From an uncultured Candidatus Berkelbacteria bacterium (GTDB lineage: Bacteria > Patescibacteriota > UBA1384 > CAJBMM01): a stretch of 64,000 nucleotides of DNA. Positions 15,700-16,260 of this stretch are shown here, piece after piece; the first letter of the stretch is position 1, and every line of letters starts with the position of its first letter. Made by a program: the position numbers and the translations under genes. The stretch is taken from positions 1,768 to 65,767 of the forward strand of contig CAJBMM010000005.1 in assembly GCA_903954185.1 (NCBI GenBank), given 5' to 3'. A model generated the notes under the pieces. That model saw only the letters and a program-made list of their open reading frames with translations. It searched no databases and was not told the origin of the DNA.

Positions 15700-16260
15700 T
15701 TATTGATATTCACTAGGTATTTCTATACCAAATTCATTGCATAAATTACTCACATCTTCGCGATCTTTCTGTTTAATATCGTAACCAAGATGAAATTTGA
15801 TAGCATATTCTGGAGAAACACAATGCACTTTAAGACCGTTAATGTCCCCGTTGCCCAGAAAAGATTCTGCTGGATTCATTTCACCATTTTCTATAGGGCC
15901 GTATACCCCATTTCCTTCTTGGTCAAACACAATAACGGTAAAATCAATCTCGTGGCCAAAATCATTTATATAATGAAATTTTATATTACTTAAATCATCT
16001 CTTAAAATAACCGAATAACCGTTTTTGTCTAAATAGTTTCGGACTGCCATAACATCTTTTCCTTGAATTATTAAATCTAAATCATTATGGGTGCGAGTCT
16101 GTCTCTTTAATAGCGCATCCACTCCCCAACCGCCTTCAACCCAAAATTTAATACCCAAATTGTCCAATTTAGCACAAAAAATAGCCACATCAGCAGCGGT
16201 CATCTCATGACTTTTATGTGCATTTGCTTTCATGGCTAAATGATAACAAAAAAAGCCCAC
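15700..16260 (-). CDS. lincosamide nucleotidyltransferase Lnu(A)/LinA-family (ANT(2'')-fold) homolog
   Basis: FWVEGGWGVDALLKRQTRTHNDLDLII matches the Lnu(A) core YWLDGGWGVDVLTGKQQREHRDIDIDF. C-terminal VSPEYAIKFHLGYDIKQKDREDVSNL matches ISKEAQLLFHSGYDLTETDHFDIKNL. True start is probably an internal Met (about 16233 or 16203), because the ORF-track start abuts tRNA-Trp. Confidence 0.6.
   Translation of the reverse strand: MGFFCYHLAMKANAHKSHEMTAADVAIFCAKLDNLGIKFWVEGGWGVDALLKRQTRTHNDLDLIIQGKDVMAVRNYLDKNGYSVILRDDLSNIKFHYINDFGHEIDFTVIVFDQEGNGVYGPIENGEMNPAESFLGNGDINGLKVHCVSPEYAIKFHLGYDIKQKDREDVSNLCNEFGIEIPSEYQ

Follow-up and report, generated by a model that had tools for sequence, protein, structure and literature searches.

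The DNA analysed here is a stretch of 64,000 nucleotides (nt) from an uncultured Candidatus Berkelbacteria bacterium (contig CAJBMM010000005.1), hereafter called the window, and the element in question is a small gene on its minus strand (15700..16233) that encodes a nucleotidyltransferase of 177 amino acids (aa) from the Lnu/ANT(2'') family, as recognized from its open reading frame (ORF), a PF10706 match and a fold match to LnuA. Read along the minus strand, the locus consists of rpmG (ribosomal protein L33; an ORF at 16502..16669), tRNA-Trp(CCA) (16274..16347; detected by ARAGORN and matching Rfam RF00005 at 57.7 bits), a terminator-like hairpin AGCCCAAGTGGGCT with a T-run (16254..16267; found by consensus scan and in the sequence), the nucleotidyltransferase gene, a spacer of 31 nt (15669..15699, read directly from the sequence) and a co-oriented gene for a Nudix hydrolase of 152 aa (15210..15668; an ORF with a PF00293 match at an E value of 5e-14). 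The nucleotidyltransferase gene lies 40 nt downstream of tRNA-Trp, with the hairpin between the tRNA and its ATG, and 31 nt upstream of the Nudix gene. An initial annotation of this DNA had described both neighbours correctly, namely the tRNA-Trp gene, which is on the same strand, and the co-oriented Nudix gene 31 nt downstream, whose Nudix box is intact. A Ribosomal_L33 (Pfam) gene is also found at the same relative position in locus L084, from the same organism, and in the relative L002. Other samples have yielded contigs that carry the locus at 99.97-99.98% nucleotide identity, and it is therefore not an assembly oddity. A terminator scan found no terminator-like site in the spacer, so the nucleotidyltransferase and Nudix genes are likely to be co-transcribed.

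The start of the gene requires a correction. The longer ORF (15700..16260, minus) from which the initial annotation worked does exist, as do the two motifs quoted from it, GGWGVDALLKRQTRTHNDLDL and FHLGYDIKQKDREDV, and it would give 186 aa from a GTG start. Because the GTG at 16260 falls within the hairpin that directly follows tRNA-Trp, and because the product called on public contigs carrying the gene is also 177 aa long, with the exact 177-aa sequence on record, the ATG at 16233 is the likely start.

The protein is a homologue of Lnu(A). It matches PF10706 with 101.1 bits and an E value of 8.4e-29 over profile positions 6-149 of 149 (the cut-off, the Pfam gathering threshold, is 21 bits), and the LnuA chains in PDB (4fo1 and 4wh5) match it at an E value of 3e-15. 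The homology proposed in the initial annotation is thus confirmed, at E values well outside what chance would give, by the profile search that it had suggested, and the Lnu(A) strings quoted there are correct according to the alignment with the two PDB entries. An AlphaFold (AF2) model built with 23 homologues as input reached a predicted local distance difference test score (pLDDT) of 89.1 and a predicted template modelling score (pTM) of 0.85. The best structural match of this model in Foldseek is LnuA 4fo1, with template modelling (TM) scores of 0.79/0.88, a root-mean-square deviation (rmsd) of 2.4 Å and an E value of 1.5e-12, followed by ANT(2'')-Ia (TM 0.68-0.71), and then by the MenT1 toxin at about 0.56-0.59 and other nucleotidyltransferases that likewise stay below 0.6. 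The predicted two-domain fold can be superposed on both LnuA and ANT(2'')-Ia. The catalytic set is present as well, including G34 and G35 of the GG motif, R47, H49, D51, D53 and D97, and in the family alignment the last five correspond to R40, H42, D44, D46 and D86 of ANT(2'')-Ia, whose roles as likely nucleoside triphosphate (NTP)-binding residues (R40, H42), ligands of two Mg2+ and general base come from its structure and from mutagenesis (PMC4313920). Across an alignment of 23 sequences of the clade, R47, D51, D53 and D97 are invariant and H49 is nearly so. The catalytic machinery expected of a Lnu(A)/ANT(2'') homologue is therefore intact, and because the predicted fold and the catalytic residues match those of LnuA and ANT(2'')-Ia, the enzyme is very probably active through the usual two-metal direct transfer of a nucleoside monophosphate (NMP).

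Membership in the family does not make the protein one of its named enzymes. Against the curated NCBIfam models it scores 94 bits for Lnu(D) (cut-off 325), 90 for Lnu(C) (300), 86 for Lnu(P) (300), 64 for Lnu(AN2) (340), 63 for Lnu(A) (300), 53 for Lnu(E) (350) and 28.8 for ANT(2'')-Ia (350), and the hidden Markov model (HMM) scores rank Lnu(D) before Lnu(C), then Lnu(P), then Lnu(AN2) and Lnu(A), and ANT(2'') behind these. True Lnu(C) proteins, which came from the same search and served as a control, score 305-379 bits. Identity with a named Lnu allele family or with ANT(2'')-Ia was therefore rejected on the failure of all the curated cut-offs. Pairwise identities to the window protein are 33.5% for Lnu(C), 34.1% for a near-Lnu(D) protein (P0043, which scores 301 of the required 325 bits) and 24% for Lnu(A), whose catalytic R, H, D, D and D are the same; between Lnu(A) and Lnu(C) the identity is just 30%. 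With Lnu(D), Lnu(C) and Lnu(P) the window protein shares the Pfam family, a similar length, the GGWGVDALL motif, DxD, the catalytic Asp and the C-terminal FHLGY...D..DV..LC. Unlike them it has an N-terminal extension of about 10 residues, and whereas these enzymes of streptococci and clostridia are borne by plasmids, phages or transposons, the window gene is chromosomal and belongs to an uncultured lineage. ANT(2'')-Ia has the same family, two-domain fold and two-metal general-base mechanism (PMC4313920), but its sequence match to the window protein is confined to the N-terminal third.

At 36 positions the same residue occurs in Lnu(A), in Lnu(C) and in the near-Lnu(D) protein; the window protein keeps 25 of these and ANT(2'')-Ia 14. 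One of the positions lost in the window protein lies two residues beyond the catalytic base. Most of the environmental clade, like all three of these Lnu proteins, has a conserved His there (H92 in LnuA); the window protein has Thr99, and the aligned members of its sub-clade (P0001, P0002 and L004) likewise have Thr, the codons for D97-F98-T99 being read in the sequence at 15937-15945 on the minus strand. In a neighbour-joining tree with ANT(2'')-Ia as the root, the sister group of the environmental clade is Lnu(C)/(D), and Lnu(A) branches outside the two; these deep nodes have bootstrap values of 13-31%. The only supported grouping of the tree, at 81%, unites the window protein with P0001, P0002, P0005, P0008 and a Berkelbacteria protein from a metagenome-assembled genome (MAG, L004). 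An argument that brackets lincosamide function by this topology was suggestive and was dropped because the bootstrap values are too low. The claim of a lincosamide-adenylylating resistance enzyme in the initial annotation thus holds as far as real Lnu(A)/ANT(2'') homology goes, and the resistance part of it is weakened by scores below every curated Lnu cut-off. Because of these scores, we infer lincosamide activity rather than read it from a model match, and it is plausible for the window protein.

Proteins of this kind are widespread. A word-indexed profile search, limited to 8,000 candidates, returned no fewer than 7,314 clusters at 90% identity whose E values are 1e-20 or below, most of the matches being stand-alone proteins of about 171-173 aa, and an exhaustive HMMER scan of 1.84 billion representatives returned 2,232 clusters at 50% identity with E values of 1e-3 or below. 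Data with one genome per species contain relatives on more than 518 stretches from many phyla (more than 500 species), including Acidobacteriota, Chloroflexota, Legionellales, cyanobacteria and many groups of the candidate phyla radiation. Within this radiation, homologues are found in MAGs of Berkelbacteria, Gracilibacteria, Saccharibacteria, Doudnabacteria, Shapirobacteria, Paceibacterota, Yanofskybacteria and Liptonbacteria. Some genomes or proteins carry two copies of the domain. For example, a Doudnabacteria MAG (L035) has two Lnu-like paralogues 1.3 kb apart (6001-6528 and 7801-8298) that share 45% and 36% identity with the window protein, and the public proteins P0093, P0190 and P0196 (about 350-410 aa) contain tandem double PF10706 domains. 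The matches named by their sources are usually labelled "lincosamide nucleotidyltransferase A/C/D/E" (JGI) or "aminoglycoside nucleotidyltransferase" (NCBI), and the exact window protein is on record in NCBI, JGI, ENA and Logan, where the JGI name is again lincosamide nucleotidyltransferase A/C/D/E. A literature search for PF10706 or K18236 returned nothing relevant. The initial annotation had called such an enzyme unexpected in a reduced genome, a view contradicted by the eight groups just listed and by a published survey that describes abundant resistance-like genes across genomes of the candidate phyla radiation (PMC8651080). Because the family is widespread, the exact protein already carries a name in JGI and the survey reports so rich a repertoire, the nucleotidyltransferase gene is neither unexpected nor unannotated.

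The position beside a tRNA gene had been taken as a sign of acquisition, and here the age of residence matters. A search for repeats across 14800-16450 turned up neither an att-like repeat nor a copy of the tRNA 3' end, and no integrase-like family occurs among the annotated neighbouring genes. Composition is ordinary, with z scores of -1.2 for GC content and -1.5 for GC content at third codon positions (GC3) relative to 41 window genes, and codon usage is unremarkable. Homologues in plasmid and phage collections were limited to the clinical types of Lnu(A)/(C)/(P) and to Streptomyces proteins, none of them more than 37% identical. In a relative whose nucleotidyltransferase is 81% identical, the order is dCMP deaminase, a gap, the Lnu-like gene and Nudix, so that the pair is kept. 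The distant relative L002, on a contig of 400 kb, keeps the order rpmG, tRNA-Trp, Lnu-like gene (L002:5994-6849), with a Lnu-like protein 52-58% identical to that of the window and other matching proteins at 32-58%. Because L002 retains this position at such low identities of the shared proteins, sequence comparison indicates that the gene has been inherited vertically at the tRNA-Trp site for a long time and is an old resident of the lineage. Other MAGs of the candidate phyla radiation carry a Lnu-like gene directly 3' of, and co-oriented with, tRNA-Pro (L015:5904-6501), tRNA-Gln (L068:5865-6486) and tRNA-Leu (L073:5858-6483). A tRNA lies within 300 nt of the Lnu-like gene at 7 of 162 loci, where about 2.5 would be expected from the tRNA density of the flanks, and at 4 of about 12 loci of the candidate phyla radiation. 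This adjacency fits either old, independent insertions beside tRNA genes or the use of tRNA promoters. As regards acquisition, a recent event is not supported by the ordinary GC and GC3, the missing att-like repeat and the position shared with L002; an old insertion next to the tRNA is plausible, since other lineages of the radiation carry the gene after different tRNAs.

The Nudix gene was proposed to form a two-gene module with the nucleotidyltransferase, in which it could hydrolyse the nucleotidylated product or a nucleotide by-product. The gene itself is a clear family member, with 52.9 bits for PF00293 (cut-off 21.1) and a Nudix box in GGTIEEGETEMQALNREVLEEAGC that matches the strict pattern GX5EX7REUXEEXGU. 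It reached no cut-off among the curated models of Nudix sub-families, and its closest solved structure, 2azw, is deposited just as 'MutT/nudix family protein'. In the genome set, a Nudix domain or gene is fused or adjacent at 8 of 82 loci, including fusions with the Nudix at the N-terminus (L001) or the C-terminus (L027/L055, L076, L082) and adjacent, co-oriented genes (L007, L039, L048, L076). Only 3 Nudix genes occur elsewhere in the flanks of these loci. The association looked enriched by about 10-fold in this set. Over 118-125 aa, the window Nudix shares 32-35% identity with the domain fused in L027/L055, where the gene order is the same, and the fused Nudix domains fall in different sub-families. 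A conserved association of the Rosetta-stone type was nevertheless rejected, since the enrichment seen in the genome set failed in the metagenome set and in two family censuses: no fused or adjacent Nudix was found at 80 metagenome loci, in the 120 best family clusters or in 149 whole-library representatives. Downstream of the Lnu-like gene, L002 has a kinase and a methyltransferase and lacks a Nudix; there an AAA_18 kinase gene, other than the one upstream of rpmG in the window, overlaps the Lnu-like gene at its 3' end. Of two relatives of the window Nudix, P0082 (42% identical) adjoins no Lnu-like gene, and P0081 (51% identical) has, as the sole neighbour on a contig of 1.1 kb, a gene that is not Lnu-like. 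A full-text literature search for Lnu and Nudix together returned just two papers, both unrelated. The lincosamide-AMP (adenosine monophosphate) adduct is a phosphodiester, and Nudix enzymes cleave pyrophosphate bonds, which makes hydrolysis of the nucleotidylated product unlikely. A dedicated module is likewise not borne out by a link that is sporadic in these surveys and lost in the syntenic L002. The simplest reading of these observations is that the Nudix is an occasional companion and not a fixed partner.

Nudix is one among many associates of Lnu-like genes. Neighbour clustering at offsets of one and two genes found no family common to more than three of the 82 loci, and a conserved operon was rejected, as synteny is not kept across them. 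Genes immediately beside the Lnu-like gene include those for GNAT (6), methyltransferase (4), Nudix (3), glyoxalase/bleomycin-resistance (3) and APH (2). Fusion partners include AAC(3), GNAT, RidA, methyltransferase, PF01663 phosphodiesterase, serine hydrolase, GrpB and P-loop kinase domains, and SAM-dependent methyltransferases, histidine phosphatase, glyoxalase and a second Lnu-like copy are further partners that are fused or adjacent. Multi-domain relatives include Lnu-PF01663 (L024:955-2751), Lnu-RidA (L045:6004-6933), GNAT-Lnu-RidA (L042:5473-6909), AAA_18 kinase-GNAT-Lnu (L006:2299-3834) and AAC(3)-Lnu (L075:5191-6507), the last of which may reflect an ORF called too long in a GC-rich genome. 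Fusions of this sort have a known parallel. AAC(6')-Ie-APH(2'')-Ia is a bifunctional fusion of two independent domains that modify small molecules, and like it, the Lnu-like domain occurs elsewhere fused to AAC(3), GNAT, methyltransferase, kinase and Nudix domains; unlike it, the window genes are separate, and the literature search found no Nudix partner for such enzymes. On the simplest reading, the partners of Lnu-like genes belong to an accessory set with detoxifying or housecleaning roles, whose members travel and fuse with little selectivity.

Taken together, we favour, with modest confidence, the reading that the window gene encodes an intrinsic, small and catalytically competent member of the Lnu(A)/ANT(2'') family, a nucleotidyltransferase whose fold is of the polymerase-beta type, beside which the Nudix acts independently. 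If it works as ANT(2'')-Ia and Lnu(A) do, D51 and D53 would hold two Mg2+, and D97 would act as the general base that activates a hydroxyl of a small molecule; the activated hydroxyl would attack an NTP, bound by R47 and H49, at its alpha-phosphate, giving an NMP-O-adduct and pyrophosphate. The most likely role, intrinsic and encoded on the chromosome, would be to inactivate a hydroxylated antibiotic or xenobiotic, for which a compound of the lincosamide type is, by analogy, the leading candidate substrate. The gene would probably be expressed by read-through from tRNA-Trp. The Nudix would be a housecleaning or detoxifying enzyme in its own right that drifted beside the nucleotidyltransferase and became fused to it in a few lineages, and not an obligatory partner. 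Several points weigh against this reading. The score is far below every curated Lnu cut-off, and the phylogenetic bracketing of lincosamide function by Lnu(A) and Lnu(C)/(D) is weak (bootstrap 13-31%). Thr99 in place of His may mean a different or altered substrate pocket. A lincosamide or resistance role for the whole environmental clade would be extrapolated from a few characterized enzymes, and natural lincosamide producers are few, which is odd beside a family of several thousand clusters. Finally, several independent Nudix fusions together with the PF01663 fusion in L024 hint at some functional coupling.

Some of these points would be accounted for if the enzyme nucleotidylated an endogenous metabolite or cofactor in normal physiology and resembled resistance enzymes through shared ancestry, as a proto-resistance gene. 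We consider this unlikely: the environmental family is huge and old (the 2,232 clusters of the HMMER scan), the gene is stably kept with native composition, the His near the catalytic base is changed to Thr and the curated Lnu cut-offs were failed, but none of the 82 loci shows conserved synteny with a metabolic pathway, the neighbours and fusion partners are of xenobiotic-modifying types (AAC(3), APH, GNAT, glyoxalase), and the closest homologues are scattered over many unrelated phyla. A different use of the locus would make the nucleotidyltransferase and the Nudix a true two-enzyme unit that serves one substrate or pathway, for instance by nucleotidylating a phosphorylated acceptor to an NDP-X (a nucleoside diphosphate conjugate) that the Nudix then cleaves, or by a write-and-erase cycle. 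What speaks for such a unit is that Nudix domains are fused in both orders (L001 on one side, L027/L055, L076 and L082 on the other) and adjacent in L007, L039, L048 and L076, that the window Nudix resembles the fused L027/L055 domain at 32-35% identity in the same order, that the L024 fusion bears a PF01663 nucleotide pyrophosphatase/phosphodiesterase in the place of the Nudix, and that the pair is kept in the relative with the 81%-identical nucleotidyltransferase. We nevertheless judge it quite unlikely, given its absence from the metagenome loci (0/80), the best clusters (0/120) and the library representatives (0/149), its loss in the syntenic and 58%-identical L002, the lack of a Lnu-like neighbour beside P0082 and P0081 (the latter on a contig of just 1.1 kb), the different sub-families of the fused Nudix domains, the equal frequency of GNAT, methyltransferase, RidA, kinase and other domains as partners, and an NMP-O-drug product that offers a Nudix no pyrophosphate bond. 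More doubtful still is the broader idea that Lnu-like enzymes are coupled to a nucleotide pyrophosphatase, whether Nudix or the PF01663 domain of L024, through formation of NDP-X followed by hydrolysis or through a reversible nucleotidylation switch.

Two further explanations start from the tRNA gene. A mobile lincosamide-resistance cassette recently acquired at tRNA-Trp would explain why the gene lies directly 3' of a tRNA, as Lnu-like genes do after tRNA-Pro, tRNA-Gln and tRNA-Leu in other MAGs of the candidate phyla radiation. As a recent event it is largely refuted by the lack of an att-like repeat and of an integrase-like family among the annotated neighbours, by the z scores of -1.2 (GC) and -1.5 (GC3), by the position held in common with L002, whose other shared proteins are 32-58% identical, and by plasmid and phage homologues that do not exceed 37% identity; we regard it as very improbable. 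A nucleotidyltransferase toxin of the MenT type that modifies tRNA 3' ends would make sense of the repeated tRNA adjacency at loci of the radiation and of the weaker structural match to MenT1 (TM about 0.56-0.59), but it is barely credible for a fold much nearer to LnuA (TM 0.79) and ANT(2''), at a locus with no antitoxin-like small partner gene and no PADLOC match, in a protein that keeps the C-terminal FH-GY...D..D motif typical of Lnu enzymes. A known defence system was also considered and rejected, as PADLOC gave nothing for the nucleotidyltransferase and only a generic match for the Nudix.

Several other features of the window were seen around the locus. Just upstream of rpmG, the gene for an AAA_18 P-loop kinase overlaps a dCMP deaminase gene by 11 nt (16785-17793, minus), and the two probably form a small pyrimidine-salvage operon. 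An ORF of 235 aa on the plus strand (18496-19203) has no Pfam match, and its C-terminal half contains a repeated, coiled-coil-like motif of the FEQVDKRF type; because the called start overlies a tRNA-Thr(TGT) encoded on the other strand, translation probably begins further downstream. The region 19000-21000 has a GC content of 0.46-0.51 against a background of about 0.38 and contains the overlapping ORFs 19757-20398 (minus) and 19973-20464 (plus); it gave no Rfam match at the gathering threshold, and the ORF at 19757-20398 has no Pfam match. Beside this GC-rich patch, an ORF of 351 aa (21312-22367, plus) with HTH_38 as its sole Pfam match at an E value of 1e-8 or below may encode an IS30-type transposase.

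The window nucleotidyltransferase is a divergent but ordinary member of a known enzyme family, and the residual novelty lies in the handful of independent Nudix or pyrophosphatase fusions. If the coupled chemistry set out above were true, these fusions and the split pair of the window would be traces of an undescribed two-step chemistry that is not antibiotic resistance. The family also calls for caution with existing names, as automated labels such as "lincosamide nucleotidyltransferase A/C/D/E" are borne by thousands of proteins whose identity to any tested enzyme is only about 25-35%. The occasional fusions with Nudix, GNAT, RidA and kinase domains suggest that small enzymes are shuffled as detoxification toolkits, which is not a new principle. 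If lincosamides or related drugs are inactivated by the window enzyme, its gene would exemplify a large environmental reservoir that may have given rise to clinical lnu genes, and a lineage with small genomes would gain an intrinsic drug-modifying enzyme.

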